A stretch of 41,222 nucleotides of DNA from a phage, in the sequence record NC_105863.1, one strand, 5' to 3'. Made by a program: the position numbers and the translations under genes. Positions 3,351 to 37,999 of this stretch are shown here, piece by piece; positions within the stretch are counted from its first letter, which is position 1; each line of letters opens with the position of its first letter. The notes below the pieces were generated by a model that was given only the letters and a program-made list of their open reading frames with translations, was not told the origin of the DNA and searched no databases.

Positions 3351-3371
3351 AGCCCCGAAAGGGGCTTTCTT
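3351..3371 (+). terminator. rho-independent terminator-like hairpin (GCCCCGAAAGGGGC + T-run)
   Basis: Perfect 5-bp GC stem with GAAA loop followed by TTTCTT; same hairpin sequence recurs at 4921-4940. Confidence 0.5.
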
Positions 3372-3376
3372 ATAGT

Positions 3377-4453
3377 ATGCTATTAACTTTAGTACCACAG
3401 GGTTTAACTATGAGCTTACTTACATCCCTCATCAGCCATCAGATATGGCTGCAACGCACCGCATCCGGTGAGGTGAAAGACCTCGCACCGTTCATTCAGG
3501 AGATGCGGGATGAAATCAAACGGCAGGTGCTGTTATTCGGCGACGACGGGCGAAGCACTGCGCGGCTGAATAAACTGTTACGGGACCTTGAAGAAGCACT
3601 GACAGGGATTACAGGTGACTGGCAAACAAAGCTGACAGAAGACCTCAAGGAACTGGCGGCGTATGAGGCTGAGTGGAACGTAAAGACACTGACCGCCAAC
3701 GTAGCTGCGGAATTTGTTACGCCTACCGCTGAACAGGTGTGGGCTGCTGCCGAGTTTCAACCGTTATCGTTGAGCGACAAGCCTGTTGACTTCACTAAGC
3801 TGATGTCAGGTTGGGGTGAAACGGAAGTAGCACGTCTTGTAACCGGCGTTAAGATGGGCTTTGTACAAGGTCAAACAACACGGCAGATTGTTAAGAATGT
3901 AGTAGGCGCCGGTGGGCGGGCTGACATCTCTGAGCGTAACGCCGCTACCGTCATCCGCACCGCGCTGTCTCACGTGTCCAACGAAGCCCGTAACGAGACG
4001 TACCGCCAGAACGACGACATCATCGAGAAGTACGAGTGGGTGTCAACGCTTGACAGCCGCACCAGTACGATTTGCAGGGTCAGAGACGGGATGACGTGGG
4101 AAATTGGTAAGGGGCCGATGCCCCCTGCCCATCCGAACTGCCGGTCGTGCACGGCTCCGGTAATCAGTTCCGAGTTCGACTTCCTCGATAAAGGCGCAAA
4201 ACGCGCGGCTAAAGGCGCGGAAGGTGGCACTCAGGTAAGCGTAGACACCACTTACTACGAGTTCCTTAAACAACAACCGGCGTGGTTTCAGGACCAGGCG
4301 CTTGGTCCTGTTCGCGGTAAGATTTTCCGCAACAGCGGTATATCACCGGAAGAGTTTCGCGTAATATCTGTAGATGGTTTCGGGAATCCGCTCACGCTTA
4401 AGCAGATGGCGGAACTCGATAAACGTGTTGCTGATTATCTGAAAGGGGAATAA
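3377..4453 (+). CDS. head morphogenesis protein (minor head protein, Mu F / SPP1 gp7-like position)
   Basis: 358-aa ORF after portal; C-terminal Cys/His cluster (CRVRDG..HPNCRSC); alternative start ATG 3410. Product by synteny. Confidence 0.55.
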   Translation: MLLTLVPQGLTMSLLTSLISHQIWLQRTASGEVKDLAPFIQEMRDEIKRQVLLFGDDGRSTARLNKLLRDLEEALTGITGDWQTKLTEDLKELAAYEAEWNVKTLTANVAAEFVTPTAEQVWAAAEFQPLSLSDKPVDFTKLMSGWGETEVARLVTGVKMGFVQGQTTRQIVKNVVGAGGRADISERNAATVIRTALSHVSNEARNETYRQNDDIIEKYEWVSTLDSRTSTICRVRDGMTWEIGKGPMPPAHPNCRSCTAPVISSEFDFLDKGAKRAAKGAEGGTQVSVDTTYYEFLKQQPAWFQDQALGPVRGKIFRNSGISPEEFRVISVDGFGNPLTLKQMAELDKRVADYLKGE

Positions 4454-4914
4454 TGATGGGCTTTTTCAAAGTAACTGACGTACCGTCTCGTCGCGTAGTC
4501 CAGTACGCCCGCGTGTCTGGCTCTGGCGAGAACGTGGTGTTTATTGAAGACGAAAGTGTACTCGGAACACCAGTGGACGATATGCCGTTTGCGGACAAGA
4601 CCGGTATTGCGCTGCCAGCGGCAGGTATGCTTTACGAGATTCCGTACCTGGCGGATGCTGGTGATGTGTATTTCTCCGTACAACCGCAGGACGCTGAACT
4701 GGCAGACGGCAGCGCAAATATCGCTGTCGAAGTTAAGGCGGGCAAAGCACCATATGCGCTGACCTGGTACAAAGACGGGAAGGAAGTGGTAAACGCCCCG
4801 GAAGAGGCTCTGTCTCTGACGGTTAACGCAGTTGGTGAATACTTCGTTAAAGTCACTGATGCCGATGGTATAGAGGCCGTAAGTAAAGCAGCGAAGGTTA
4901 CTAAGCCAGAATAA
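4453..4914 (+). CDS. Ig-like domain protein (possible head decoration/accessory protein)
   Basis: 153 aa; C-terminal segment YALTWYKDGKEV..GEYFVKVTDADG resembles an Ig-like (I-set/Big) beta-sandwich signature; ATGATG overlap with upstream stop. Confidence 0.4.
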   Translation: MMGFFKVTDVPSRRVVQYARVSGSGENVVFIEDESVLGTPVDDMPFADKTGIALPAAGMLYEIPYLADAGDVYFSVQPQDAELADGSANIAVEVKAGKAPYALTWYKDGKEVVNAPEEALSLTVNAVGEYFVKVTDADGIEAVSKAAKVTKPE

Positions 4915-4918
4915 ACTG

Positions 4919-4941
4919 AAGCCCCGAAAGGGGCTTTTTAG
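4919..4941 (+). terminator. rho-independent terminator (GCCCCGAAAGGGGC + TTTTTA)
   Basis: GC-rich hairpin immediately after stop of 4453-4914 ORF followed by T-run. Confidence 0.6.
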
Positions 4942-4989: not shown

Positions 4990-5005
4990 AACTATTCGAA
5001 TAGTT
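4990..5005. promoter_or_regulatory. perfect 16-bp palindrome AACTATTCGAATAGTT abutting a -35 element (candidate operator)
   Basis: Sequence equals its own reverse complement; half-site AACTAT/ATAGTT recurs at early promoters (26455, 30162, 32269). Confidence 0.4.
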
Positions 5006-5032
5006 GACTTTTCACCAAAAATGTGCTAAGCT
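5004..5032 (+). promoter_or_regulatory. sigma70-like promoter (TTGACT -17- TAAGCT with extended -10 TG)
   Basis: -35 TTGACT 5004-5009, 17-bp spacer, TGcTAAGCT at 5024-5032; located in 340-bp noncoding gap upstream of spanin genes. Confidence 0.45.
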
Positions 5033-10051: not shown

Positions 10052-11218
10052 ATGGCTACAACTCCTTTTAAGGGCGCGAATACCGCGCAATTCTATGTGG
10101 CGGAAGTCACCCCGGGCGTAACACCGACTAACCCGGTCTGGTCACCGTTGCGTAACACTGGCGGTGTTCCTGCTATCACCCGCGACACGCTGACCTCCAA
10201 CGAACTGGACGGCAGCCGTGAAACTACATCCATCCGCACCGGTAACAAACAGGTTAGCGGTGAATACGCGATCGAGCTTAGCTCGAAAAGCCAGGATGAC
10301 TGGCTGGCTGGTGCTTTAGGCTCTACGTGGCAATCCGGTGTTTCCCTGTCCAGTCTGTCGATTACCGTCGCACCGGCGGGCAAGACGTTCACACGCGCTA
10401 CCGGCAGTTTTATCACTGACGGAGTTGGGGTAGGCGACCTGATTGCATTTACCGATTTAACAGGCGATAACGCAAAACCATTTATTGTTACTGCAGTAAC
10501 GGCTACGGTTGTTACTGGTGCGGGCATCCAACACACCCTGACCACCGAGACAAAAACTAGTAAGGCTAAAACCGGCGACACGCTGGAAACCGGTAACACG
10601 TGTAAGACGTTCTCTATCCTTACCTGGTACAAAGGCCAGTGCGGCGGTACTGACGCGTACACGTTAACCAAAGGCGTGGAAGTTTCTGGTTTTACCATCG
10701 AACAGGCTGTTAACGCGATGGTAACTGGCAGCTTCCCATTCATCGGTCGCAGTCAGGAGATTCTCACTACGCCGCCGACCGGTTCCAACTTCTCATCTGT
10801 TACTTTTGGTGATGAGCCGTTCTCTTCGGTTGACGTTTCCGTGTTCGATGGCTCTACGCCGTTGCGTTGTGATAGCCTTACCATCACCAACGACAACAGC
10901 GCGTCCGCGCAGTTCGAACTCGGCAACACTAACGTGGCCTTTGTGGAACGTAGCCGCGCGGCTAACACCTTCTCCATCTCCGGCAAGCTGTACGACATGG
11001 CTATGATTCAGAAGTTTATCAACGAGCAACAGGTAGAGATTAACTCTATTCTGGCGGGGGTAAACGGGGCTATGTCTTTCAGTTTGAAACGTGCAGAACT
11101 TACGGCGGTTACACCTGAGATTGGAGGACCTGAGTCAATCACTCAGTCTATTGAAGGCCAGGCTACTGGCAACCAGTACCAGTCGTCTATTGTTATCCAG
11201 CGTATCACCTACGCATAA
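10052..11218 (+). CDS. major tail protein
   Basis: 388 aa from ATG 10052 (RBS AAGAGG); Thr/Ser/Gly-rich; followed by strong bidirectional terminator; position before chaperone/tape-measure genes. Confidence 0.5.
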   Translation: MATTPFKGANTAQFYVAEVTPGVTPTNPVWSPLRNTGGVPAITRDTLTSNELDGSRETTSIRTGNKQVSGEYAIELSSKSQDDWLAGALGSTWQSGVSLSSLSITVAPAGKTFTRATGSFITDGVGVGDLIAFTDLTGDNAKPFIVTAVTATVVTGAGIQHTLTTETKTSKAKTGDTLETGNTCKTFSILTWYKGQCGGTDAYTLTKGVEVSGFTIEQAVNAMVTGSFPFIGRSQEILTTPPTGSNFSSVTFGDEPFSSVDVSVFDGSTPLRCDSLTITNDNSASAQFELGNTNVAFVERSRAANTFSISGKLYDMAMIQKFINEQQVEINSILAGVNGAMSFSLKRAELTAVTPEIGGPESITQSIEGQATGNQYQSSIVIQRITYA

Positions 11219-11220
11219 AA

Positions 11221-11256
11221 CTAAGGCCCCGTTTGGGGCCTTAGTTTTTTTTTTCT
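11221..11256. terminator. bidirectional rho-independent terminator (AAGGCCCCGTTTGGGGCCTT + T11)
   Basis: 8-bp GC stem with T-run on plus strand and AGTTTTAT on minus strand; sits between convergent major tail gene (+) and kinase gene (-). Confidence 0.7.
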
Positions 11257-11810
11257 TACAAACCTAATTTTAAAGCAATGTCTATAACGTTCGATTTAAC
11301 GTCACCCGGTATGATGTAGGTGTCGTAATCTTTTACACCATCAACGCCATACAGATAACCACGGCTGTCCCCCTCAAACGTATAGCCGTCACGATGAAGG
11401 CGAACGATTCGCACGTCATGCCCGACGGCGACGATAGGGGAAACTTCACTGGCGAATCCCCCGTCGGACACTACAAAAACTTCGTTGCCGTCGGGCAATC
11501 TTCCGGCAAGATACTTACCGAAATAATCGTCACCGAATACCGGTTTAATGAATTGCTCAGAAATGGCAATCATGAACTGACGCCGAGACAACCCGTTAAG
11601 GAAACCCTCTGGCTTTTCTTTCCGCGCCCGGTCGTCGTAGCCGTCGAGAAACTCGCGGTAAGCATCCTGGCCTAACGCAGCCATAGCAATATTGAACATC
11701 GGATTCTTGAAACTGGCGACACCCTTCGCAAAGCCCATTTCTACCAGCGCCCTAGCAAGTGTGTCTTTCCCGCAGCCCGCAGGACCATTAAGAATAATTA
11801 CCTTAGCCAT
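11256..11810 (-). CDS. P-loop nucleotide kinase (dNMP-kinase-like)
   Basis: Walker A GPAGCGKDT at N-terminus; 184 aa; last gene of a three-gene minus-strand operon; family assignment from motif only. Confidence 0.55.
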   Translation of the reverse strand: MAKVIILNGPAGCGKDTLARALVEMGFAKGVASFKNPMFNIAMAALGQDAYREFLDGYDDRARKEKPEGFLNGLSRRQFMIAISEQFIKPVFGDDYFGKYLAGRLPDGNEVFVVSDGGFASEVSPIVAVGHDVRIVRLHRDGYTFEGDSRGYLYGVDGVKDYDTYIIPGDVKSNVIDIALKLGL

Positions 11811-12295
11811 TATTTATCACTCCCATGTGGTTTTAAGTGTGTAGAGTTCCCGTTACAGTCGTATTCAGTAACTGCGTGAGTGGTTATGCCGAGTTCGCGG
11901 AAATGCTTTATTACCGCTGGAGAGTCGTCGAATGCACACAAGATTCTCTCCGGCCCAATAGCACGCAACACCTCTTCTTTAATTACGATGTCTTTTCTGT
12001 TGTCGTGTTTGCTGCGCATGATTAACTGATAAAATTCGACGCGGTGGCGCTGCAACCACATTCTGGTTTCTTTTTCCGCGTCATCACTACGGCCTGTTAA
12101 GATAATAACGGCATAGCGACGATTAAGGGCGTTACACAGTTCGATGTTATCTTTAATGGGTGCATCGTCTTTGCACGCCATGTTAAATGGTTTCCACGCC
12201 CAGGTTTCGCCGTAGTTATCTTTCGGCAGCAGGTGTAAACGATGAGTACCATCTGCCAATGTCCCGTCTAAATCGAAAATCACAATATCTTTCAT
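11810..12295 (-). CDS. HAD-superfamily phosphatase (nucleotidase / polynucleotide phosphatase-like)
   Basis: N-terminal HAD motif I IVIFDLDGTL; 161 aa; start overlaps upstream stop. Confidence 0.6.
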   Translation of the reverse strand: MKDIVIFDLDGTLADGTHRLHLLPKDNYGETWAWKPFNMACKDDAPIKDNIELCNALNRRYAVIILTGRSDDAEKETRMWLQRHRVEFYQLIMRSKHDNRKDIVIKEEVLRAIGPERILCAFDDSPAVIKHFRELGITTHAVTEYDCNGNSTHLKPHGSDK

Positions 12296-13422
12296 CCAAG
12301 CATCTCCGGTGAAATAGTTAAACGTGCGACCTCGCCATATTCGGCGCTATAAGTAATTACGTTTGCACTGCGGCCCGACATCCACCCACCGCGGGAGGCA
12401 TATGCATCTTTAGCCGCGAGAGTGCGGTGTTGCTCAACAATCATGTTACGGCTTTCTACAATCTTTTGGTGGTGCAGGTGACCCACGTGGGCGTAGCTGT
12501 AAACACTCTCGCCGAACGCTTTGCGGAACTTGGCGATCATAACCGGTTCGATAGCATCGAAGCGTGCTTTATGGCCGTGGTGAAAGAACAGCGTAGTTTT
12601 GCCGTGTTGCACCATCTTGTAAACATCCGGCGACGTATCGACGAACACACGCGGCTCATTGTCGTACAGCGTACTAAACATCTCAGCTAACCAAATCATT
12701 CCGCTTTCGTCGTGGTTACCTTGCACGATAAGCAAGCGAACATTTTTATGTTTAACGAGAGCCATATCAATGACACGGCGGACCATACGAATCATGTAGC
12801 GTACAAGTTTCTGATAGCGGGTGTCAGCGTCAAGAACATGACCACTGGCAGGTGTAACGGCGTCCAGACTATCGAAATGCGCAAGGTCGCCCAGCAGATT
12901 AATAACTCCTGTTCCGGCATCCGGTGCTTTCTGGAACGCTGCGTCGAACCAGCGGGAGAACAGGTCTTCCGCAATCTTCATGTCCCAGTCGTCGCCGCTC
13001 TCGTCAGCCCAGGCCAGCATACCGAGATGGAAATCAGACACAGTGTAAAGGTTGAGTAGCTTGTCGTCTCGTTTGGCGCGAACGGCTTTAACAGGTGCAA
13101 CTGGTGTAATCTCCGACTTCATGCCTTCGATTACGGCTTTCATCAATTCAACCTGACGTTCGGCATCGGTGTCGGTCTTAACCCATTGCAACTTGGTGTT
13201 GCCAAACTCATCCACCAGTGATGACGTTCCTTTAATCTTGTAGCCGTCCGGTACAAGGTAACTAACGTCACGCCCGTGGCCTACACCTTTCTTAGCCAGC
13301 TTCGCTTTACGGATACGAATAACGCGGTCGGAGATGCCGTATTTACGGGCGATGTCGATATTCTTCATACCGGCGTTCAATTCTTCCTGTAACTGTTCGT
13401 CGGTTATTTTCTTCCTGGCCAT
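12292..13422 (-). CDS. calcineurin-like metallophosphoesterase with N-terminal HTH-like domain
   Basis: Motifs SDFHLG, LGDLAHFD, QGNHDE, FFHHGH, VGHLHH match metallophosphoesterase motifs I-V; N-terminal 60 aa resemble an HTH (KYGISDRVIRIRKAKL). Confidence 0.6.
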   Translation of the reverse strand: MARKKITDEQLQEELNAGMKNIDIARKYGISDRVIRIRKAKLAKKGVGHGRDVSYLVPDGYKIKGTSSLVDEFGNTKLQWVKTDTDAERQVELMKAVIEGMKSEITPVAPVKAVRAKRDDKLLNLYTVSDFHLGMLAWADESGDDWDMKIAEDLFSRWFDAAFQKAPDAGTGVINLLGDLAHFDSLDAVTPASGHVLDADTRYQKLVRYMIRMVRRVIDMALVKHKNVRLLIVQGNHDESGMIWLAEMFSTLYDNEPRVFVDTSPDVYKMVQHGKTTLFFHHGHKARFDAIEPVMIAKFRKAFGESVYSYAHVGHLHHQKIVESRNMIVEQHRTLAAKDAYASRGGWMSGRSANVITYSAEYGEVARLTISPEMLG

Positions 13423-13459
13423 GCTTATTCCTCGTGTTTAGGATTTGGCCTATACTAGC

Positions 13460-13651
13460 TCACTTCTCTTTGACATTCGAGTTGCACGCCCAGATTAAGA
13501 TAAATACCCACGGCAGCAGAATCCAGCCAAGAAACAGGTTAGCCATGAATATCGCTAACTTCGCTTTATGGCTACGCATATGGGCCACTAAAAACGGGAT
13601 AAAATAAACTAAAACGATAATAATTAAGAAGAACATAGTAATACCTGTCAT
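13460..13651 (-). CDS. small two-TM membrane protein
   Basis: 63 aa, two hydrophobic helices (FFLIIIVLVYFIPFLVA; LFLGWILLPWVFILIWA); first ORF downstream of the minus-strand promoter at 13686-13722. Confidence 0.4.
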   Translation of the reverse strand: MTGITMFFLIIIVLVYFIPFLVAHMRSHKAKLAIFMANLFLGWILLPWVFILIWACNSNVKEK

Positions 13652-13685
13652 GGTGTAGTTCCTGTTTGAGTTAACATTGTTGGTG

Positions 13686-13722
13686 TAAGTGAATAGTATC
13701 CTATTATGTTGGGGTGTGCAAG
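13686..13722 (-). promoter_or_regulatory. sigma70-like promoter (TTGCAC -17- TACTAT), inverted duplicate of 35824-35860
   Basis: Reverse complement of 13686-13722 is identical over 37 bp to 35824-35860; reads TTGCAC, 17-bp spacer, TACTAT on minus strand, upstream of minus-strand ORFs 13651 down to 11256. Confidence 0.5.
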
Positions 13723-13828
13723 TAATGTGTTAGAATTATTTTGCGCCTAGTGTCGCACACGAAAAGCGGGTGGTTCCCGCCTGGCGCATTAACCTTAACC
13801 AGTAACCTCTTAACCAAAGGATTAAATA

Positions 13829-14610: not shown

Positions 14611-16942
14611 TGTAGCTAGTTTAGTTGTAAAAGTATCGGAGCAAGGCGCGAAAGCTACATCAGACCGTCTTGATAACCTTTCCAAGTCCGCAAAGGTAGC
14701 CGGAGCTGCGGTAGCGGGCCTCGCTTCCATCGTCGCCGCTACCGCGTACAAGGCCGCACAGGAACTGGTAGACTCCCAACGGCAACTGGACAAGATGTCC
14801 GCCAGCCTGAAAACACTAACAGGAAGCACGCAGGGTGCAAGACAGGCATTAAGCATCCTGCAAGACTTCGCGCGCGACACCCCGTATGGTCTTGAACAGG
14901 CGGTAGAAGGATTCCGTAAACTTGTGGCGCTTGGTCTTACACCGTCAGAAGAAGCGTTGCGCTCCTACGGCAACACCGCCGCTGCTATGGGTAAAGACCT
15001 GAATCAGATGATTGAGGCCGTTGCAGACGCCAGTACATTTGAATTCGAGCGCCTTAAAGAGTTCGGCATCAAGGCCAAGCAGAACAAAAACGATGTTGAA
15101 TTCACGTTCCAGGGCACTACTACGGTGGTTAAGAAGAGCGCTGCCGATATCGAGCAATACCTGCTCAACATTGGTAACGTAAACTTCGCGGGTGCTATGG
15201 CGGACCAGGCCAACACACTCAACGGCGCTATAGCCAGCGCCAGCGATTCCTGGTCGCAGTTAAAAATGACACTGGCTACCAGCCTTGATGTTGGTGCGCT
15301 TGCAGGACCTATCCGGTACATTGATGATTTAATCCAGGAACTTAACGCACAGGTAGCATCCGGCGAACTTGCCGCCGAGATGCGTATGTGGGGTGACATC
15401 GCATCAGAAGTAGGAAGCGCGATAGAGATGTCGTTCGATGCCGCTTTTGGTTTCGTCGGTGACGCGATAAACGGATTAAATGAACTTTGGGATTTTAGCA
15501 GTAAAAGTATTACCGATAGCGGCGAACAAACGGCGACAACCATCGCGGAATCAGCCGCCGATGCGCTCGATTTCATCGCGGAAGAATTTACCGCGATGGA
15601 GCGCTTCTTTGAAGATATGGTTAAAGGGGCGCAGGACGCAGGCCGTTTAGTGAAAGCGGCCCTCACTCCGGGGGAATCGGTAGATGTAGCAAAAAACATC
15701 AACTTCCAACTTGGTATGGCCCTGGACACCCAGCGAGATGTAGCAGACCTGACGCGTAAAAGTTTCCGTGAGCAGGTGGAGGCGCAGCAAAATATCATCG
15801 CGCTTAAACGAGCGGCATACGACATAGACAAAGAAGCCGCTAAGGAAGAAGGGCTTAGTAAATTTAAGGTAACTGGTACCGGTGGTGAATCCGAAGATGA
15901 TAGCACCGGCGTAAAAGCCGCTAAGAAAGCTGCGGATGCTTTCGAGCGCCAGAAGAAAGCCGCCGAGGATTTCTACTATCAGTCGATCCATCTTAATGAT
16001 GACGTATTCCAGAAAATAGAAGCCAACCAGGAACAGCAGTTATCCAAGCTACAAGAGTTTTACGGCAATCAGCTTCTTAGCGACCAGCAATACGAGAACG
16101 CCAAAACCCAGATTATTCTGGAGGCGGACACCGCACGTCGGGAAGAACTTGCTAAGCGGGAGAAAGAACGGCAGGAAAAGCAGCAGAAAGGCGACGACTT
16201 CATTGCTCAGATTATGGGTCAGAATGCCACTGAGCTTGAGCTTCTAGACATCCAGGAACAGCAGAAACTGGCGGTAGCCGATAAGTACCGTGAGCAGGGG
16301 CTTATTAGTGAGACGCAGTATCAGGCCGCGCTTAACGCCATCAACGAGCAGTACGCCACGAAACGTGCCGACGCAACGGCAACCGCCTTTGGTAACATGG
16401 CTTCAAACATCGGGTCTGCGTTGGGCGAGGCTTCTGGTGCGTATAAAGCATTCGCTATCGTACAGGCCACTATAGCCACGTACACCGCAGCTATTGAGGC
16501 GTACAAGTCAACGGCAGCTATCCCTGTAGTTGGCCCGTTCCTGGCCCCTGTAGCCGCTGCCGCTGCCGTTGGTGCAGGTATGGCGCAGGTTTCCGCTATC
16601 CGGTCCGCGCGTGAACAGGGCGGACAGTTATCCGCAGGGCAGGCTTCCACCATCGCAGAACGCGGTAAACCAGAAGTTATTATGCCGGCTGGCGCATCTC
16701 GTGTTCGCACAGCACAGCAGATGAAAGAAATTATGGGGCAAAACGGGTCTTCTTCCGGCCCGTCTAATGTTACTATCGTAAACAACACGAGTTCTCAAAT
16801 CGGCAACGTATCCACTGAGCAAGATGATGAGGGCCGTTTGCGAATCATCATCGAGGAGCAGGTGGCTGCCTCTTTGCAGAACAGCAACAGCAAGATTAGC
16901 AAGGCCCGCAAAGCCACAAGAAATGCGCCGGGGTTTAAATAA
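14603..16942 (+). CDS. tail tape measure protein
   Basis: 779 aa, Ala/Gln/Glu-rich with long predicted helices; RBS GAGGG; position after chaperone pair. Confidence 0.8.
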   Translation: MADVASLVVKVSEQGAKATSDRLDNLSKSAKVAGAAVAGLASIVAATAYKAAQELVDSQRQLDKMSASLKTLTGSTQGARQALSILQDFARDTPYGLEQAVEGFRKLVALGLTPSEEALRSYGNTAAAMGKDLNQMIEAVADASTFEFERLKEFGIKAKQNKNDVEFTFQGTTTVVKKSAADIEQYLLNIGNVNFAGAMADQANTLNGAIASASDSWSQLKMTLATSLDVGALAGPIRYIDDLIQELNAQVASGELAAEMRMWGDIASEVGSAIEMSFDAAFGFVGDAINGLNELWDFSSKSITDSGEQTATTIAESAADALDFIAEEFTAMERFFEDMVKGAQDAGRLVKAALTPGESVDVAKNINFQLGMALDTQRDVADLTRKSFREQVEAQQNIIALKRAAYDIDKEAAKEEGLSKFKVTGTGGESEDDSTGVKAAKKAADAFERQKKAAEDFYYQSIHLNDDVFQKIEANQEQQLSKLQEFYGNQLLSDQQYENAKTQIILEADTARREELAKREKERQEKQQKGDDFIAQIMGQNATELELLDIQEQQKLAVADKYREQGLISETQYQAALNAINEQYATKRADATATAFGNMASNIGSALGEASGAYKAFAIVQATIATYTAAIEAYKSTAAIPVVGPFLAPVAAAAAVGAGMAQVSAIRSAREQGGQLSAGQASTIAERGKPEVIMPAGASRVRTAQQMKEIMGQNGSSSGPSNVTIVNNTSSQIGNVSTEQDDEGRLRIIIEEQVAASLQNSNSKISKARKATRNAPGFK

Positions 16943-20874: not shown

Positions 20875-23829
20875 ATGTCAAGCGGATGCGGTGACGTTTT
20901 AAGCCTGGCGGATTTACAAACCGCCAAGAAACATCAGATTTTCGAGGCCGAGGTTATCACTGGCAAATCCGGCGGTGTCGCCGGTGGTGCCGATATTGAT
21001 TACGCGACAAATCAGGTTACTGGACAGACCCAGAAGACGTTACCTGCCGTGTTGCGTGATGCTGGTTTTAAACTGGCAGATTTTGATTTCACGTCAGGCG
21101 GTACACTATCCGCTAACGACCGAAACACCGCAGTTTTGTGGCCGTCGTCCTCTGGCGGTGACGGGGATTGGTACTATTGGTTGGGTGCTCTACCAAAAAT
21201 TATCCCAGCGTCATCCTCCCCGCAGTCCACCGGTGGCGTGGCAGATGGGGCGTGGCAGCCTGTCGGGTCGGTCATACTGCGGCAGCAAATATCTGATGTA
21301 AACGGTGCAATTCTGTACCCAGATTTACATGTGGCGCGATGGAAGGACGAATACGACCCGCGCGCATGGGGCGCCGTGGGCGACGGCGTAACTGATGATA
21401 CTCAATCTATTTTTAATGTATTAGCAGCTTCCCCCAACAATTGGATTATAGACGGCAGGGGTTTGACTTATAAAGTTTCCCAATTACCTGACATTAGTAA
21501 ATTTAAGAATGCTGCATTCGTTTACGAGCGCGTAGCCGGGCAACCGCTTACTTATGTAGCTGATGGCTTCTTTAACGGCTCACTAACTAAGGTGACGGAT
21601 ACCCCGTTCTACAACGCATGGACGCAGGATAAAACTTTCGTCTACGACCATGTTATTTACGCCCCGTTTATGGCGGGCGAACGACATGGTGTTCAAAACT
21701 TACATGTAGCTTGGGTTCGCTCTGGAGACGACGGGCAGACTTGGTCAATGCCTGAGTGGTTGACTCCAATCCATGCTGACTATAATGCTAGTGTTTCTAC
21801 GAACAGAGTTAACTACCACTGCATGAGCATGGGTACGTGCGGCAACCGATTATATGCAGTTATAGAAACCCGCTACTTATCTAATATGCGGATGAAGAAG
21901 GCAGAACTTTGGTCACGCCCAATGCCGTATTTTAGACACCCAACCGGCGGAATAACTATTAGTTCTGGCTCCACTACTGCTACCATTGTTATAGAAAATC
22001 ATGGCCTAAAAGCAGGAGATGCGGTTAACTTCTCTAATACATCGGCAACTGGCGTATCGGGTAATATGACGGTTGCGTCTATAATTAACCGAAATACGTT
22101 CACTGTTACGCTCTCAAGCCCTGCGAGTTCCACCATAAACAATGCGGGTGTTACCTGGAACTTCGCAACGCGATTCTGGGACAGCCCGTGGGAAATTACC
22201 GAATTGCCGGGGGTAGCATACTCCACTAACGCTGATTTGTGTGTCACGGAGACACATAGTTTTGCGGTTATAGATGATACTAACTACACTATCGCTGTCG
22301 GCTATCACAACGGCGATGTGTCCCCTCGGCGTCTCGGCGTCTTGTATTTTAGTAACGTGTATGACAATCCAGGCGTATTCGTTCGTCGCACTGTCGCTCA
22401 GGCATACGCTGATAACGCTTCTGAGCCGTGCGTGAAAAGTTATGGAGGTGTGCTCTACCTTACCACACGCGGCACATTACCTACTTCCCCTGGCTCTACA
22501 CTGGCGATGAGCACCGATTCAGGGCAAAACTGGAGCTACTTGCGATTTCCGAACAATGTACATCACTCCAATCTTCCGTTCGCTAAAGTAGGTGACTATC
22601 TCTACATCTTTGGTACAGAACGTGCCTTCGGCGAGTGGGAAGGTGGCGAGCAAGACAGCCGCTATGAAGGTTCGTATCCACGGACCTTTATGTGCAAAGT
22701 TAATGTGTCGTCATGGCCCTCATCTTTAGATGATGTTCAGTGGTTTAATATTACCGACCAAATATACCAGGGTCATATCGTTAACACTGCTGTCGGCGTC
22801 GGCTCGGTCTGTGTTAAAGATGGCTGGTTGTACTATATCTTTGGTGGGGAAGACTTCTTCTCTCCCTGGAGCATCGGGGATAACAGTGCGAAGTTATGGT
22901 ACAAGCATGATGGGCATCCGGCTGACTTATATAGCTACCGGATAAAGATTGAAGGCCACCCGTATGTGTCACGTGATTTCAAATACGGAGCAACTCCTAA
23001 CCGTACACTACCTGTCGCAATGGGTGTAGATGGTGTCCGTCATGTAGAAGCACCTTTGACGTTTGACAATGATATAAGCGTGTACTCCCTGCGTGTAACG
23101 GGGTTGGAATACGATGGCACACAACAGTCTGCCGTGCGTGCACGGTTTGATGGTGATTACGGGCTGATTTCAAAAACAGTCCCGACTAAAACTCCATCGG
23201 GTCAACGACTGATTGTTAGTGGCGGTGATGGCGCATCCAGTTCCGACGGTGCATTGCTGCAACTGTACGGGTCGAACCATGCAACGCCTAACAGGGCTAT
23301 TATGTATGCGTCAGGAGGCTTCTACTCATACGACAATTTCCTTCCTTACTTAGACTCGCAAGTGTCTTTAGGTTCGGCAGGTAATAGGTGGACTACGGTG
23401 TACGCGACCACCGGTACGATAAACACGTCTGATGGTACACTTAAGACGAATAAAGAGGAAATTGAGGGACAACTCCTTACCGCATGGGAGGATATACATG
23501 TAATATCTTTTAAGTGGCTTGAAAGCCTAGCAATCAAGGGTGACACTGCAAGGATACACTTCGGTGTGATAGCCCAAGATGTGCGAGACATCTTGGTCAA
23601 CCATGGGCTTATGGAGAAAGATTCTACCGATTGTAAATATGCTTTCTTGTGCTACGACCCAATTGAAGCTGCGTATGATATTGATGAAGATGGCCAGACT
23701 GTACAAGTATCCCCTCCCGGCGGCAGATGGGGGGTTAGGGCGGACCAGATGTTCTTCATAGAGATTGCCTATCAGCGTAAGAAGATGCGCGAGTTCGAGA
23801 AGAGGCTGGCAGCACTAGAAGATAAATAA
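20875..23829 (+). CDS. tailspike / capsule depolymerase with C-terminal intramolecular chaperone (peptidase S74-like) domain
   Basis: 984 aa; two Asp-box (BNR) motifs SGDDGQTW and STDSGQNW; GAVGDGVTDDT motif typical of beta-helix glycosidases; C-terminal segment from about 23428 (TSDGTLKTNKEEIEGQ..) resembles the auto-cleaving chaperone of endosialidase/tail-fibre proteins. Confidence 0.75.
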   Translation: MSSGCGDVLSLADLQTAKKHQIFEAEVITGKSGGVAGGADIDYATNQVTGQTQKTLPAVLRDAGFKLADFDFTSGGTLSANDRNTAVLWPSSSGGDGDWYYWLGALPKIIPASSSPQSTGGVADGAWQPVGSVILRQQISDVNGAILYPDLHVARWKDEYDPRAWGAVGDGVTDDTQSIFNVLAASPNNWIIDGRGLTYKVSQLPDISKFKNAAFVYERVAGQPLTYVADGFFNGSLTKVTDTPFYNAWTQDKTFVYDHVIYAPFMAGERHGVQNLHVAWVRSGDDGQTWSMPEWLTPIHADYNASVSTNRVNYHCMSMGTCGNRLYAVIETRYLSNMRMKKAELWSRPMPYFRHPTGGITISSGSTTATIVIENHGLKAGDAVNFSNTSATGVSGNMTVASIINRNTFTVTLSSPASSTINNAGVTWNFATRFWDSPWEITELPGVAYSTNADLCVTETHSFAVIDDTNYTIAVGYHNGDVSPRRLGVLYFSNVYDNPGVFVRRTVAQAYADNASEPCVKSYGGVLYLTTRGTLPTSPGSTLAMSTDSGQNWSYLRFPNNVHHSNLPFAKVGDYLYIFGTERAFGEWEGGEQDSRYEGSYPRTFMCKVNVSSWPSSLDDVQWFNITDQIYQGHIVNTAVGVGSVCVKDGWLYYIFGGEDFFSPWSIGDNSAKLWYKHDGHPADLYSYRIKIEGHPYVSRDFKYGATPNRTLPVAMGVDGVRHVEAPLTFDNDISVYSLRVTGLEYDGTQQSAVRARFDGDYGLISKTVPTKTPSGQRLIVSGGDGASSSDGALLQLYGSNHATPNRAIMYASGGFYSYDNFLPYLDSQVSLGSAGNRWTTVYATTGTINTSDGTLKTNKEEIEGQLLTAWEDIHVISFKWLESLAIKGDTARIHFGVIAQDVRDILVNHGLMEKDSTDCKYAFLCYDPIEAAYDIDEDGQTVQVSPPGGRWGVRADQMFFIEIAYQRKKMREFEKRLAALEDK

Positions 23830-23830
23830 A

Positions 23831-23857
23831 ACTAAGGCCCCAAACGGGGCCTTTTCT
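23831..23857 (+). terminator. rho-independent terminator (AAGGCCCCAAACGGGGCCTTTTCT)
   Basis: 8-bp stem hairpin plus T-run directly after tailspike stop. Confidence 0.65.
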
Positions 23858-26451: not shown

Positions 26452-26736
26452 CTAACTATAATAGTTCGCTATTAGGTCGTCAACCTGTTTAAACGAACCA
26501 ACGACAAAAACATTCGCACCACGTTTACGCATACGCTCGTGCTCACGTAACTGGTGTGGGTCTGGCTTCGTGTTTTCGTCTTTCTTAACCTCGACGAACA
26601 AGACGATGCCGCCGGGTAGAATTACCAGCAGGTCGGGAGCGCCGGAGCGCCCCTCATAGGAAAGTTTACGAACGAGGCCGCCGATAGCCTCGAATCGCTC
26701 TTTTGCGTATTTCTGGATGCGCCCCTCTTTAGTCAT
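26452..26736 (-). CDS. VRR-NUC domain nuclease
   Basis: 94 aa; PD-(D/E)XK-type core GAPDLLVILPGGIVLFVEVKKDE characteristic of VRR-NUC proteins. Confidence 0.65.
   Translation of the reverse strand: MTKEGRIQKYAKERFEAIGGLVRKLSYEGRSGAPDLLVILPGGIVLFVEVKKDENTKPDPHQLREHERMRKRGANVFVVGSFKQVDDLIANYYS
26455..26483 (-). promoter_or_regulatory. sigma70-like promoter (TTGACG -17- TATAGT) with palindromic AACTATAATAGTT core
   Basis: Minus strand reads TTGACG, 17 bp, TATAGT; plus-strand sequence 26454-26466 is the near-perfect palindrome AACTATAATAGTT. Confidence 0.5.
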
Positions 26737-29431: not shown

Positions 29432-29463
29432 CCTTAGTAAAAAGGCCCAATGAAGGGCCTTAG
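29432..29463 (-). terminator. rho-independent terminator on minus strand (AAGGCCCTTCATTGGGCCTTTTT)
   Basis: 7-bp GC stem plus U-run read on minus strand, just downstream of DUF2815-like gene stop (29481). Confidence 0.55.
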
Positions 29464-29480
29464 TTAAATTGATTCAGTTA

Positions 29481-30161: not shown

Positions 30162-30190
30162 ACTATAATAGCTAACTATTCAGGTGTCAA
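30162..30190 (-). promoter_or_regulatory. sigma70-like promoter (TTGACA -17- TATAGT) with palindromic CTATAATAG core
   Basis: Consensus -35 and near-consensus -10 on minus strand in the 55-bp gap between nuclease and DUF2815-like genes. Confidence 0.55.
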
Positions 30191-32268: not shown

Positions 32269-32297
32269 ACTATAATAGTGAACTATTCACTTGTCAA
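32269..32297 (-). promoter_or_regulatory. sigma70-like promoter (TTGACA -17- TATAGT) with palindromic AACTATAATAGTG core
   Basis: Consensus -35/-10 on minus strand in divergent intergenic region 32238-32361. Confidence 0.55.
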
Positions 32298-32361
32298 TGG
32301 GCTTTTCTAAAATAATTAATATGGTACTATTCACATATCAACTGACTAAGGAGTAATTGAC

Positions 32362-32577
32362 ATGCTACCATCTGAACTAAGCATCCGCGTAGAACAGCGC
32401 CGTAAAGAACTCGGCATCTCCCAGCGCCGTCTGGCGATCCTCACCGGCGTTTCCCAGGGCGCTATTAACCAGCTTGCGCTTGGGGTGACTCAGGACGTCC
32501 GCCCGGCGACGCTGTTTAAACTGGCGGAAGTGCTGGAAGTAGACGCCAAGTGGCTGGCGTTCGGTGAAGGGGCTTAA
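32362..32577 (+). CDS. XRE-family helix-turn-helix transcriptional regulator (Cro/CI-like)
   Basis: 71 aa; HTH signature ELGISQRRLAILTGVSQGAINQL; RBS AAGGAG; only plus-strand gene inside the minus-strand early block. Confidence 0.7.
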   Translation: MLPSELSIRVEQRRKELGISQRRLAILTGVSQGAINQLALGVTQDVRPATLFKLAEVLEVDAKWLAFGEGA

Positions 32578-32594: not shown

Positions 32595-34820
32595 CTATTC
32601 CAAATCTTCCTCAGTAACCACTAGCATTTCATTCGGTTCGTATATTGTCTTCGGCCTTAATCTATCCACTATTCTTTCAGGTATACGATATGTTCTCGGT
32701 ACTACTTCGCCATTAACATCGCAGCCTAGCATTAGTTCGCCATCTTTCAGCATTTTATCAAGATGGGTGTTAGTCACAGAAAAGTCACCGGAACGGGCCA
32801 CTATCTGCTGCTGGGTAAAACCGCGACCTGTATCATCTGACTGTTGCAGGTCTTCCAGTGCTGAAAGTATTGACTCCTTCCTTACTTCATCCCTGCCGCG
32901 GTTAACTTTTTCCTTTACTTTTTGTTTACCTTCGTTAGTTAACCCTTCTTCCCGCTCTTTCTCCTCGTCAGTTTTGAACGGCTCGAAGCCCCACGGCATC
33001 AGAACAAGCGCCTTGTGTGGTTCCGGCAGGTCGAGGTTTACGATTGTGCCGTATTCCTCTGTGCTACCGAGGAACTCCACCGCGCGGTACTCTTTCGCTG
33101 GCGGTGCTTCGCGGAACTGTACCGACTCAAGCACCATTCCAACCGTTTTCTGTTGGGGGCCGTGCTTAAATTTCGAGTGGTATACGTTTATCTGACGGTC
33201 GGTTGCACGTTCGATTGTCAGTTCCACGTCGACACCCGCATACAGCGCCCCGCTGCCACGGGCTTTCTTTCCCCCCTTCGGTGTATGGTGAACAACGCCC
33301 ACCGCGGCTTTGGTTGCGTCGCGTACTTCTTTCAGTATGGCGATAACTTTACCCATGCCGATTGTCGTCGACGAACTGTTCTCGTCGAACTTATCAATCG
33401 TCAGGGCCAGCGTCTGGTTAAGGGTGTCGAATGCGACCATACCAATAGGCTCGCCGTTGGCGGTTTCGCGCATCCTGCGGATTAGCGCGGGAATTTTTTT
33501 ATCACCATGCGCCGTGAGTACCTCACCCATGTCGATGACATGCACATAATCTTTACCTTCCCTGCCATATTTAGCCGCGAGTGCGTCAATACGTGTGCGT
33601 GTAGCTGCGCCACCTTCACCGTCGATATAGAAATGGTGGCAACGCTGGGTGTCTGCCCCCGCAAACCGGTACCCGGCGGCGCTAAGGTACATCACCCCCA
33701 GCGTATAGAATGATTTATATGTGCCGGATTCCCCGACGATGTCCCAGATGCAATCCGATGGCATGTACCCTTCAACGACGAAATCAGCCTTTACCGGTTC
33801 AGGTAACTCGTCATCGTCTTCAAGGTCTTCCAGTGTACAAGTTACAGGCTCCTCGTTCTCTGTGCGGTGCAGTTCTTCAATCTCTTCATCCGGTAAATCA
33901 GGCAGAGCCGCACGAATGCTGTTAATACTGATAGGTTGCTTGTCTACGTTAAGCTCGTCCGGAAGGCCGCACATACGCAGGGCCAAATGTTGTCGGCGGT
34001 TAAGCTCAGTGCAAGCGCCGTTGTTTGTGTGCTGGCACACGAAGCGCACCTCTTTACCGTCAAGCATGATGCTGGTGGAGCCTTTGCCTGTATGCAGATG
34101 TTCATTAGGGCATGGCACTTCATACCCTCGGCCGGAAGATAAAGCGTCAAGGCCCAGCTCGGCTTCGCAGAAATGAGCTATATCTGCGTTAAGCCCGTGC
34201 TCATCGGCGGCAAGTGTCTTAGCCTCGCGTTTACGCAGCCCCATCTCTTCGGCTTTCTTGATGTACCGCTCCGCACGGATAACACGCCCTTCTGTAACCG
34301 TTATCTTAGACTCTTTATGTGGCAGGTAGATGAGGCGGTTGCCGTCTTCCGTGCAGTGGTCGCGCAGCGATTCATCTATTTCTAACTCGGCACAAATAGC
34401 ACGTTGCACCATCCACGCGTCGTTAGAGTTAAACGGAGTGCGAGCCGGTACGAGGACGCGGAAAGCGTAATCACCGTTTTTACACGCGTGCTGATGTGAC
34501 GCCGTTGTGTGCAGAATATTGAAGAACGGTGCGTTCTTGAATTTGCGGGTAAGGTCGCGGTACTGAGTACGGTTGAGATGGTCGAAGTCAAACTTAACCA
34601 CACTGTCTTCCAGAATCGCGTTCTTACGGCGACCGCCAACCGGCGCAATAGCTTTCTGCTTAATCTTGGCCGCGTCGTACTCTTCCTTAGTCCATGACGG
34701 GTCTACGGACAGACGCTTCGATGTATCGCAGACATACTCTACAAACTGCTCCAGTGGCATTTCACGGGCTACCGGGTTTTTATCGAATGTGTTACGCAGC
34801 GTTGCAAAAACAATATTCAT
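32595..34820 (-). CDS. DNA primase / replicative helicase-type protein (N-terminal primase-like region, C-terminal RecA-fold ATPase)
   Basis: 741 aa; Walker A GESGTYKS and Walker B-like MVAFD in C-terminal half; central Cys/His cluster CPNEHLH..CQHTNNGAC. Confidence 0.65.
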   Translation of the reverse strand: MNIVFATLRNTFDKNPVAREMPLEQFVEYVCDTSKRLSVDPSWTKEEYDAAKIKQKAIAPVGGRRKNAILEDSVVKFDFDHLNRTQYRDLTRKFKNAPFFNILHTTASHQHACKNGDYAFRVLVPARTPFNSNDAWMVQRAICAELEIDESLRDHCTEDGNRLIYLPHKESKITVTEGRVIRAERYIKKAEEMGLRKREAKTLAADEHGLNADIAHFCEAELGLDALSSGRGYEVPCPNEHLHTGKGSTSIMLDGKEVRFVCQHTNNGACTELNRRQHLALRMCGLPDELNVDKQPISINSIRAALPDLPDEEIEELHRTENEEPVTCTLEDLEDDDELPEPVKADFVVEGYMPSDCIWDIVGESGTYKSFYTLGVMYLSAAGYRFAGADTQRCHHFYIDGEGGAATRTRIDALAAKYGREGKDYVHVIDMGEVLTAHGDKKIPALIRRMRETANGEPIGMVAFDTLNQTLALTIDKFDENSSSTTIGMGKVIAILKEVRDATKAAVGVVHHTPKGGKKARGSGALYAGVDVELTIERATDRQINVYHSKFKHGPQQKTVGMVLESVQFREAPPAKEYRAVEFLGSTEEYGTIVNLDLPEPHKALVLMPWGFEPFKTDEEKEREEGLTNEGKQKVKEKVNRGRDEVRKESILSALEDLQQSDDTGRGFTQQQIVARSGDFSVTNTHLDKMLKDGELMLGCDVNGEVVPRTYRIPERIVDRLRPKTIYEPNEMLVVTEEDLE

Positions 34821-34945
34821 TTCTTTTTCTCCGCACGTTCTAAGGCTTCCTGCATACGGCGCATTGCGCGGTTCATCTTTACCGGTGCGAAGAAATCAGC
34901 GCCATGTTTCTGGCGGCGTAGCTGTGGAACTATTAACTTTGTCAT
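34817..34945 (-). CDS. micro-ORF (42 aa, basic) translationally coupled to primase-helicase
   Basis: MTKLIVPQLRRQKHGADFFAPVKMNRAMRRMQEALERAEKKK; RBS AAGGA; TGA overlaps primase ATG (ATGA). Confidence 0.3.
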   Translation of the reverse strand: MTKLIVPQLRRQKHGADFFAPVKMNRAMRRMQEALERAEKKK

Positions 34946-35013
34946 TGTATAATCCTTGTGCTTACTTTGATGATTTGTACTTTAGCCCCGACGTTCTGGC
35001 GTTGGGGTTTCTT

Positions 35014-35226
35014 TTATTTATCGCCCGCAAACCACGCGTGCGCAGAATCATAGAAACGACATTTACTTAACACGTCTACTGGCATCTTAATAATGCGTGT
35101 AGGTTCCGACAAATGATTAGGCTTACATATTTCTGCATAGAATCCGCTGTCAGTAATTTCTGACGCAAACTTAAACCAGTATTTAACTTTACCGTTTTCA
35201 AAGTAACAACCCATACGTCCAATCAT
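35014..35226 (-). CDS. hypothetical protein (70 aa)
   Basis: ORF with ATGA overlap on upstream HTH gene stop. Confidence 0.4.
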   Translation of the reverse strand: MIGRMGCYFENGKVKYWFKFASEITDSGFYAEICKPNHLSEPTRIIKMPVDVLSKCRFYDSAHAWFAGDK

Positions 35227-35405
35227 TTCACGTTCTCCTTAATCCATGCTTCAACTTTATTACGGTCAAATGTACCTGGTAAACGGCGACCCATAACCTT
35301 AATACAACAATCAGGGAATTTACCACTGCGCAACCAGTTATTAATTGTCTGACGTGTTACCCCAATACGCTCGGCTACTTCATTCTGTGTCATGTAATGT
35401 TGCAT
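35223..35405 (-). CDS. small helix-turn-helix DNA-binding protein (60 aa)
   Basis: MQHYMTQNEVAERIGVTRQTINNWLRSGKF.. is a classic HTH; ATG 35405 has RBS AGGAGA; ORF track start 35519 would run through the promoter, so the shorter form is preferred. Confidence 0.55.
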   Translation of the reverse strand: MQHYMTQNEVAERIGVTRQTINNWLRSGKFPDCCIKVMGRRLPGTFDRNKVEAWIKENVK

Positions 35406-35436
35406 TTCTATATCTCCTGTTTGTTTGGTGAAGCTG

Positions 35437-35465
35437 AGTATAGGATAGCGGGAATGTAAAAGCAA
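35437..35465 (-). promoter_or_regulatory. sigma70-like promoter for leftward early operon (TTGCTT -17- TATACT)
   Basis: Read on minus strand about 30 nt upstream of HTH gene start. Confidence 0.45.
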
Positions 35466-35502
35466 CCAATCCCTGCAATATTTAATCTTTACAAAAAAGT
35501 TA

Positions 35503-35532
35503 TTGAAAGTTCTTGACACATGTTTGTATAAT
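35503..35532 (+). promoter_or_regulatory. sigma70-like promoter for rightward transcription (TTGAAA -18- TATAAT)
   Basis: Consensus -10 TATAAT at 35527-35532; divergent from 35437-35465. Confidence 0.5.
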
Positions 35533-35559
35533 GGTTTTGGGACTTGTATATATTACGGA

Positions 35560-35591
35560 GTTGACGAACCCTCCCCGAGGGATTCGTCAAC
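35560..35591 (+). promoter_or_regulatory. long imperfect inverted repeat / hairpin in rightward leader (GTTGACGAACCCTC-CCC-GAGGGaTTCGTCAAC)
   Basis: 14-bp stem with one bulge, no T-run; lies in a 350-bp noncoding AT-rich region. Confidence 0.4.
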
Positions 35592-35824
35592 CCCTCCCAG
35601 ACAGCTGAGATGCTTGTTTTAGGGTTTAAGGATAAGTGTATCTAAATCTCATTTAAAGAAGTAACCCACTGAAATATCTACTGTTTCTTAATGTGCCGTA
35701 GATTCGCAACCGTAAAAATGTAACGATTATTGGGCAGGCTTAAGGCCTACCCTTTAGTTACCAAGTAATAAGAATAAAGGCACAACCTTCCCTAAAGAAT
35801 CACAACGGCAACGTAACTAATCTC

Positions 35825-35853
35825 TTGCACACCCCAACATAATAGGATACTAT
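35825..35853 (+). promoter_or_regulatory. sigma70-like promoter (TTGCAC -17- TACTAT), copy of 13686-13722
   Basis: Part of 37-bp exact inverted repeat; about 35 nt upstream of gene 35888. Confidence 0.5.
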
Positions 35854-35887
35854 TCACTTATCGAAACGAGACAGAGGAGTGAGGGTT

Positions 35888-37134: not shown

Positions 37135-37141
37135 AATTTAC

Positions 37142-37170
37142 TTGCACACTAAGATAGAATAGGCTACTAT
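37142..37170 (+). promoter_or_regulatory. sigma70-like promoter (TTGCAC -17- TACTAT), third member of TACTATTCA family
   Basis: Same -35 and -10 hexamers as 35825-35853, with related spacer (AATAGGcTACTATTCA). Confidence 0.5.
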
Positions 37171-37201
37171 TCATTTACACAAACGAGAGGGGAGACAGAA
37201 T

Positions 37202-37799: not shown

Positions 37800-37999
37800 C
37801 CAGCATATTATTTATCTGGGTACTGTCCGCGGGCCAGATGCAACTCACGGCATCAGAAACGTTTTATTCGATGGAGGCGTGCCAGTCTGCGGCACGCGCC
37901 GCAGAGAACGCACACTTCCTGTTTCAGGGCGACAAGCCCAACGATTCAGAGGTACGCGCTATCTGCTCACCTAAGCGACTTGGTAAACAGGAGAAATAA
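37796..37999 (+). CDS. small protein with hydrophobic N-terminus (possible secreted/membrane)
   Basis: ATG 37796 overlaps upstream stop (ATGA); MTSILFIWVLSAGQ.. N-terminus. Confidence 0.35.
   Translation: MTSILFIWVLSAGQMQLTASETFYSMEACQSAARAAENAHFLFQGDKPNDSEVRAICSPKRLGKQEK

Follow-up and report, generated by a model that had tools for sequence, protein, structure and literature searches.

A 37-bp inverted repeat in a Kagunavirus coliphage as a conserved predicted promoter module with a putative operator

The Cro and CI operators of lambdoid and 434-type phages overlap early promoters, and a palindrome with two 5-bp arms around a 4-bp centre is the classic geometry of Cro/434-type HTH_3 dimers. 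Excisionase-family proteins, on the other side, often bind direct repeats as monomers. The morons of lambdoid phages are reportedly promoter-gene-terminator units situated in late operons, as is said to have been described for HK97 and HK022 by Juhala et al. in 2000. In T4-type phages, promoter-early stem-loop (PeSL) cassettes have been reported (Arbiol et al. 2010, PMC2839356). Within the genus Kagunavirus, seven promoters were predicted with PHIRE in VB_EcoS-Golestan (PMC7203180), and the record of fBC-Eco01 likewise carries seven PHIRE "predicted phage promoters". The fBC-Eco01 paper gave their consensus as tgAATAGTa-ccTATTat-T and assigned it to a phage-encoded RNA polymerase (PMC9825357).

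The window analysed here, the whole 41,222-nucleotide stretch of record NC_105863.1, is from a Kagunavirus (Guernseyvirinae) coliphage. It contains a 37-bp inverted repeat whose two copies, termed A and B, are listed in Table 1 together with the other features. The sequence around copy A is 92-93% identical to vB_VIPECOTH07, fFiEco03 and others, and that around copy B is 93-99% identical to K1G, K1H and fTaEco01. An earlier reading made from the sequence only (hereafter, the sequence-only reading) had counted the repeat as perfect, and realignment gave no mismatches: the reverse complement of copy A equals copy B at 37/37 bases (CTTGCACACCCCAACATAATAGGATACTATTCACTTA). When the whole window was searched for the 37-mer with up to 3 mismatches, these two matches alone were returned, and the chance expectation was 0.00 matches in 100 dinucleotide-preserving shuffles. 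Ungapped extension of the pair reached 47 nt at 91%; perfect identity is confined to the 37 bp, outside which the sequences are unrelated. Self-comparison for further copies revealed a third promoter copy, termed C, which had been missed. Copy C belongs to the inverted-repeat pair I2 (81% over 47 nt); it retains the -35 hexamer, the palindrome described below, and TCAyTTA, and differs in the 5' half of the spacer. The repeat finder also tied the 37-mer to partial copies at 26454, 30161, 32268, and 32317 (families D1 and D6).

Table 1 Features of the window discussed in the text (a dot marks a feature without strand)
Feature	Position	Strand	Details
Copy A	13686..13722	-	-35 TTGCAC 13721-13716; -10 TACTAT 13698-13693; predicted +1 near 13686; orthologues in 33 relatives; fBC-Eco01 and SETP3 have an annotated promoter at the equivalent position
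Copy B	35824..35860	+	-35 35825-35830; -10 35848-35853; predicted +1 near 35860; 35 orthologous copies; exact 37-mer in 76 GenBank records; PHIRE promoter 6 of fBC-Eco01
Copy C	37141..37177	+	TTGCAC-N17-TACTAT at 37142-37170; 29 orthologous copies; PHIRE promoter 7 of fBC-Eco01
Palindrome in copy A	13692..13705	.	Putative operator
Palindrome in copy B	35841..35854	.	Putative operator
Palindrome in copy C	37158..37171	.	Putative operator
Promoter TTGACG-N17-TATAGT	26455..26483	-	Near-consensus, replication cluster; palindrome 26460-26473 fills the spacer
Promoter TTGACA-N17-TATAGT	30162..30190	-	Near-consensus; palindrome 30167-30180 in the spacer
Promoter TTGACA-N17-TATAGT	32269..32297	-	Palindrome 32274-32287 in the spacer; divergent from the promoter of the HTH_3 gene
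One-mismatch palindrome AATATGGTACTATT	32318..32331	+	Covers an extended -10 (TGgTACTAT) in front of the HTH_3 gene; PHIRE promoter 5 of fBC-Eco01
Four-gene cassette	11256..13651	-	Driven by copy A (predicted promoter); genes assigned by Pfam
Imm_superinfect (imm)	13460-13651	-	Pfam; first gene of the cassette, ATG at 13651
Metallophosphoesterase	12292-13422	-	Pfam
HAD/PNKP-type phosphatase	11810-12295	-	161 aa; Pfam
P-loop (AAA_18) protein	11256-11810	-	184 aa; weak Pfam match
Bidirectional intrinsic terminator	11217..11248	.	Ends the cassette and the upstream tail-tube operon; member of a repeated terminator family
HTH_17	35226..35405	-	About 60-aa excisionase-family winged HTH; open frame to GTG at 35519; leading palindrome-binding candidate by phyletic pattern
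HTH_3	32362..32577	+	71-aa Cro/C1-type; second candidate for binding the palindrome

The hexamers and spacing named in the sequence-only reading were confirmed: TTGCAC, a 17-nt spacer, and TACTAT occur in A, B, and C, with the -10 in the form TAnnnT within the 16-18 nt expected for sigma-70. The limits of the 37-mer are exactly those of a core promoter: it begins at -36, and its last base is the predicted +1. The predicted +1 of copy A is located 35 nt before the ATG of imm and that of copy B 29 nt before an ATG at 35889; in both cases a Shine-Dalgarno sequence is present and the orientation is correct. On the other hand, the match to the sigma-70 consensus is only 7/12 (3/6 for TTGCAC, in which the critical TTG is kept, and 4/6 for TACTAT), and the module was below the threshold of a consensus promoter scanner and went unreported by it. 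This score is moderate, and function is argued from conservation, position, and orientation instead of from the consensus match. The earlier promoter reading was thus kept in the form of a predicted promoter: geometry, orientation, similarity that ends at +1, and the annotations of relatives favor it, whereas the consensus score does not. These comparisons give good support to the view that the module is a predicted promoter read by the host RNA polymerase, copy A directing the minus-strand cassette led by imm and copy B the rightward small-gene cluster. The only transcriptome of a relative, obtained by RNA-seq of K1B4, is coarse and unsynchronised and lacks start-site resolution (PMC12645636).

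The module is already known as a predicted promoter, both in the annotations of relatives and in print. Three of the seven sites in the fBC-Eco01 record correspond by orthology to copies A, B, and C: 15129-15148 (minus), 37807-37826 (plus), and 38973-38992 (plus), respectively. The annotation of SETP3 has a BPROM promoter at the position of copy A. The consensus of the fBC-Eco01 paper is the reverse complement of the core of the 37-mer, which in that orientation reads GTGAATAGTATCCTATTATGT; the PHIRE promoters of these Kagunaviruses, fBC-Eco01 and VB_EcoS-Golestan, are the same sequence element as the 37-mer. The two papers listed the sites without analysis and did not describe the sigma-70 architecture, the palindrome, the variable offset, or the allele structure. 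As for the polymerase, the published proposal that the motif is a promoter for a phage-encoded enzyme was drawn from PHIRE, and we find it hardly credible. PHIRE finds repeats, not polymerase specificity. At these sites, -35 and -10 hexamers of the sigma-70 type are separated by 17 nt. The annotations of fBC-Eco01, SETP3, FSL SP-031, and TS33 contain no RNA polymerase gene, and the only ORFs of the window longer than 500 aa have as their counterparts in relatives the tape measure, a tail protein, the tailspike, the DNA polymerase, and the helicase-primase. Since an RNA polymerase gene was found neither in the annotated relatives nor among the large ORFs of the window, we regard the attribution as wrong and correct it to promoters of the host-polymerase type.

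The promoter family was then surveyed by scanning IMG/VR for the module core and adding four GenBank genomes. The survey yielded 33 A, 35 B, and 29 C copies and 17 extra copies, giving 114 copies in about 45 genomes. In relatives, the extra copies stand before optional genes on the minus strand of the head region. TTGCAC is conserved throughout the 114 copies, and the similarity among paralogs starts 1 nt before the -35 and stops 7 nt after the -10, that is, at the predicted +1, beyond which the leaders diverge. Copies A and B were located at orthologous positions in every Kagunavirus examined, and orthologues of the A and B promoters were identified in three further genera: Jerseyvirus, Cornellvirus, and that of a Hafnia phage. 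In the 5' half of the spacer, A, B, and the extra copies all keep ACCCCAAYAT; as the C copies differ there, this shared stretch indicates descent or exchange and not necessarily a functional need. The exact 37-mer is present in 76 GenBank phage records. A host origin of the module was also considered and was rejected, as the 37-mer had no match among 5,426 complete E. coli genomes. The feature itself is of little consequence, being an ordinary part of a well-sampled genus that occurs verbatim in dozens of GenBank genomes. What remains of interest is the inferred operator with its regulator, and the role that the module may have in cassette swapping.

In the sequence-only reading, the exact identity of A and B was taken to imply recent promoter capture or conversion, which did not withstand comparison across the genus. 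Among the 26 genomes in which both loci are present, the A copy differs from the B copy of its own genome at 0-7 positions, and the mean number of A-B mismatches was 2.58 within genomes and 2.48 between genomes (permutation P = 0.83). Because the within-genome distance is no smaller than the between-genome distance, there is no sign of recent conversion; if conversion were ongoing, the reverse would be expected. The polymorphic positions at each locus are TTGC[A/G]C, AA[C/T]AT, and GG[A/G/T]TAC. The A copy of the window is the commonest form (4/8) of the A allele linked to imm, and its B copy is the commonest B form (17/35). Random pairing of alleles would make A and B identical in about a quarter of the genomes with an imm-linked A, and identity was observed in 2/8; besides the window, A is identical to B in a second genome. 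On this comparative evidence, the identity of A and B is attributable to strong purifying selection together with the presence of the commonest allele at each locus, and not to recent duplication.

The contrary explanation, namely duplication, capture, or conversion in the recent lineage of this phage, with identity reflecting the time since the event, is highly unlikely in our estimation. The 37/37 identity within unrelated flanks is what it would produce, but the module occupies both loci in all the Kagunaviruses examined, and the alleles of the window are the commonest at both loci and circulate widely as the exact 37-mer. More specific support for it comes from the imm-linked A alleles, all of which (8/8) have the B-type bases AACAT and GGATAC, whereas the other A alleles and the extra copies have AATAT and GGGTAC. 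This is compatible with conversion at some time; however, the B-type bases in A are common to all 8 genomes, which show 0-2 mismatches to their own B, and any exchange must then predate the divergence of these genomes. The pattern suggests one older exchange as the source of the two B-type bases, a step reconstructed from the alleles. Furthermore, A and B resemble each other much more closely in Kagunavirus than in Jerseyvirus: in Jerseyvirus A and B are dissimilar and differ in -35 offset too, whereas A, B, and the extra copies are nearly identical in Kagunavirus. The dissimilarity in Jerseyvirus and the B-type bases of the imm-linked A alleles indicate that the module spread among loci within the Kagunavirus lineage, and only at that depth of time does the promoter capture of the sequence-only reading hold. 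Exact identity of dispersed short repeats in a phage thus need not imply a recent event.

Considering these results, we think it probable that the two 37-mers are members of a conserved Kagunavirus promoter module for the host polymerase, with an embedded inferred operator, and that selection rather than recent duplication keeps them identical. Sequence and comparison show that the genus sets this module before the rightward small-gene cluster (B and C), the minus-strand cassette (A), and, in relatives, other optional minus-strand genes. In the model we propose, the module would have reached several loci at about the time when the genus arose, and the imm-linked A allele would have received its two B-type bases in the older exchange.

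The two inverted copies had also been regarded as a potential substrate for inversion by homologous recombination. The premise is sound in that 37 bp of perfect inverted homology is long enough in principle, and recombination-type functions (a DUF2800 exonuclease and a DUF2815 protein) are encoded. In addition, the gene order of the replication region varies between genera, the helicase-primase strand being flipped in Cornellvirus and TS33. The expected product was not encountered, however. A predicted A×B recombinant junction was built as a query against GenBank phages with a required coverage of at least 80%, and all 486 matching records were below 80%, every match stopping at the module edge; this figure (0/486) refers to genomes in the database, not to isomers in a phage stock. 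Likewise, no chimera of A-upstream and B-leader sequences occurred among about 30 genomes tabulated, and no invertase gene is annotated in the relatives fBC-Eco01 and SETP3. It is therefore very improbable that the 22-kb segment inverts to give genome isomers with biological consequences, and the two marks of a Hin/Gin-type invertible segment, an annotated invertase and a recombinant junction, were both absent from these searches.

A separate observation concerns the helicase-primase gene, which lies on the strand opposite to the HTH_3 gene in Kagunavirus and Jerseyvirus and on the same strand in Cornellvirus and the Hafnia phage TS33 (window 32595-35519 compared with L074 11449-13749 and L075 8560-10851). 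This strand difference indicates that the helicase-primase segment was inverted or rearranged during the evolution of the subfamily. The HTH_17 gene was found only in the opposite-strand arrangement.

The sequence-only reading had overlooked a 14-bp palindrome, AATAG-N4-CTATT, within the repeat. The window contains 6 exact copies, whereas 0.04 are expected, and all of them lie within promoters. The arms are fixed and the N4 varies between orthologues. The distance from the -35 to the palindrome is 4 nt in the TTGACA-type promoters, 7 nt in Jerseyvirus A, and 10-11 nt in the TTGCAC type, and this variable offset indicates that the palindrome is separable from the -10. In the Cornellvirus FSL SP-031 and the Hafnia phage TS33, the orthologous promoters are kept, the palindrome arms have decayed, and no exact copy is present. 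The sites thus combine conserved arms, enrichment (6 against 0.04), and confinement to promoters, as is expected of an operator. Moreover, because an activator needs a fixed geometry, positions that vary within the core promoter are more in keeping with steric repression than with activation. These results suggest that the palindrome is likely a repressor operator.

The palindrome might instead be a by-product of a symmetric -10-like sequence in bidirectional promoters, or be inherited with the module without binding any protein. Indeed, its right arm overlaps the -10 in every promoter type, and the imm-type A copies have the promoter-like sequence TTAACA-N17-TAGTAT (9/12) on the opposite strand. 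We nevertheless judge such an origin unlikely, given that the left arm is invariant although it lies in the spacer, that the palindrome occurs at three or four different offsets from the -35, and that the arms decay in genera that keep the promoters. The sigma-70 polymerase makes no base-specific demand in the spacer. The opposite-strand promoter is moreover restricted to the imm allele (8/8); the other A alleles and B score 3-5/12 there. In the window, this site (13671-13699, plus strand) shares the -10 region of copy A and would read toward the int-alpA RNA element described below and the tail genes. Copy A of the window may accordingly be bidirectional, in the imm allele only, and the idea of a bidirectional promoter conserved at copy A was rejected.

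Two one-mismatch palindromes, AATAGTTGACTTTT and ACTAGTTGACTATT, were also found at 4999-5012 and 39521-39534 (both plus strand), where they overlap the -35 hexamer (TTGACT) of two promoters directed, on the plus strand, toward structural and late genes. These versions are conserved in relatives and could be weaker putative sites for the same regulator.

The arrangement resembles the lambdoid/434 operators in its 14-bp palindrome with fixed arms and a variable centre, its overlap with core promoters, its several copies per genome, and the small HTH proteins encoded beside divergent promoters. It differs in that this virulent phage lacks both a CI-type repressor and an integrase, and in that the operator role is deduced from sequence. 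A further difference is that the phyletic pattern favors an excisionase-family HTH protein over a Cro-like one. In tblastn searches (442 records), HTH_17 was found only in the two palindrome-bearing genera, Kagunavirus and the Jerseyvirus-type phages; it is 80-84% identical between them, and the recognition helix VTRRTLNNW is common to both. No HTH_17 was detectable in FSL SP-031 and TS33, in which HTH_3 is present (43% and 36.5% identity, respectively). HTH_3 occurs in all four genera and is 46-48% identical between Kagunavirus and Jerseyvirus. Its recognition helix does not track the palindrome: it reads SQGAINQL in Kagunavirus, SQSLITHL in Jerseyvirus, and TQSAISHL in Cornellvirus, the Jerseyvirus form being closer to that of Cornellvirus. 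A homologue search with the 71-aa HTH_3 protein returned only close relatives, at least 75% identical and from the same phage subfamily, which provide no independent lineages for covariation.

HTH_17 was assigned to the excisionase family by PHROG 66, and it scored 27.2 bits with TIGR01764, for which the cutoff is 28.8. A profile search against solved structures gave generic HTH matches only, the best with E = 0.0016 over 22 residues. Only four lineages underlie the phyletic link between the palindrome and HTH_17, and one gain or one loss could account for it. Also counting against the link, the Kagunavirus L003 has a divergent HTH_17 helix, VSPMTLNRW, and unchanged palindrome arms. A further caveat is the 5+4+5 geometry of the palindrome, which is typical of Cro-type dimers and not of the direct repeats that excisionase-family monomers often bind. 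For the leftward HTH_17 operon, the best promoter candidate is TTGCTT-N17-TATACT at 35465 (minus strand, 8/12), which is placed without confidence. From these comparisons HTH_17 is the best candidate for the binding protein and HTH_3 the alternative, and a host factor is possible.

If the palindrome is an operator, a phage-encoded dimeric DNA-binding protein would occupy it and occlude RNA polymerase, and one regulator would shut the module promoters and the promoters of the replication genes together. The fullest version of the model, in which HTH_17, with the palindrome as its operator at variable positions in every early and replication promoter, shuts off a whole regulon in the strictly virulent Guernseyvirinae and the module is at the same time a PeSL-like portable junction that swaps accessory genes, is possible, and we put it forward tentatively as a combination that we rather doubt. 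The operator hypothesis would bear on the way in which early transcription is shut down by virulent Jersey- and K1G-type phages, a widely suggested choice for therapy and biocontrol.

The cassette downstream of copy A is flanked by the tail-tube gene on one side and the gene for the tail assembly chaperone on the other. Its content differs in fBC-Eco01, SETP3, FSL SP-031, and TS33, and the first gene after copy A in relatives may be imm, a divergent second Imm_superinfect allele, a gene for a 108-aa protein with a signal-peptide-like N-terminus, or one for a 97-aa membrane protein. The sequence-only reading had proposed that the cassette was acquired with an early promoter. In general terms this was borne out, as the accessory cassettes of the genus come with a copy of the module, but the acquisition is not recent: the A cassette and its promoter are also present in Jerseyvirus, Cornellvirus, and a Hafnia phage, and hence the cassette is old. 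Of its genes, the HAD/PNKP-type phosphatase and the P-loop protein may form a split end-repair pair resembling polynucleotide kinase-phosphatase; the genes of relatives at this position are unrelated (three small ORFs in fBC-Eco01 and Ant in SETP3).

Like a moron, the cassette has its own promoter and terminator, sits amid tail genes, varies in content, and begins with a gene of the superinfection-immunity type; copy A and the terminator at its far end enclose non-structural genes within the structural region. Unlike the morons of lambdoid phages, it is on the opposite strand of a virulent phage, and the promoter in front of it, instead of being unrelated, is one more copy from the early promoter family of this phage. 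The likeness to PeSL cassettes lies in a repeated, highly conserved, sigma-70-like early promoter unit that borders variable accessory genes, and in the terminators, which are also a repeated family here. Copies of the module are found at the edges of insertions and replacements between relatives, and extra copies occur only where extra minus-strand genes exist. The leader tcgaaacgagaSataaggaatttagaaATG follows B copies and extra copies ahead of unrelated ORFs; the same promoter and leader before unrelated ORFs are as expected if recombination between copies shuffles genes. In contrast to PeSL, promoter and terminator are not fused into a composite unit here, the module ends at +1 without a stem-loop, 3-5 copies are present per genome versus dozens, and recombination between the copies is putative. 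The module copies would thereby mark sites for the exchange of accessory genes such as superinfection-exclusion genes.

The repeated terminators (ATAAAACTAAGGCCCCnnnnGGGGCCTT) are located at 4910-4937, 11215-11242, 23826-23853, and 29442-29465 (repeat pairs D2, I3, and I4), and this family and the promoter family together give the genome standardised cassette boundaries. Just past the terminator of the portal gene, at 3371-3384 (plus strand), TATAGTATGCTATT may be a remnant of the module; at the equivalent place in fBC-Eco01, an extra minus-strand gene is inserted with its own module copy.

Several other elements were observed near the copies. A structured RNA matching the Rfam family int-alpA (RF02996; 36.9 bits, gathering score 35.8) is located at 13740-13804 (plus strand), between copy A and the ATG of the tail assembly chaperone (13829). 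In SETP3, FSL SP-031, and TS33 the Rfam match was below threshold, but the alignment shows that the structure is conserved there. Across the four genera the alignment contains 14 pairs, 6 of them with compensatory changes, indicating that the element is conserved just upstream of the tail genes. It may serve in restart or antitermination of the tail-gene transcript after the minus-strand cassette.

Upstream of copy B, a non-coding gap of roughly 420 bp contains a strong promoter-like sequence at 35503-35532 (plus strand; TTGAAA-N18-TATAAT, 11/12), which is followed on its 3' side by a long hairpin (about 35560-35600) and then by a stem resembling a terminator (about 35732-35760). The equivalent of 35503-35760 is annotated in fBC-Eco01 as a host promoter and a terminator, and this region could correspond to a short non-coding transcript or an origin region. 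Finally, a 24-bp unit (TCCGTATAACTGACCGCAGGCTTG) is repeated three times in tandem at 36285-36356 (plus strand), inside the rightward small-gene cluster.
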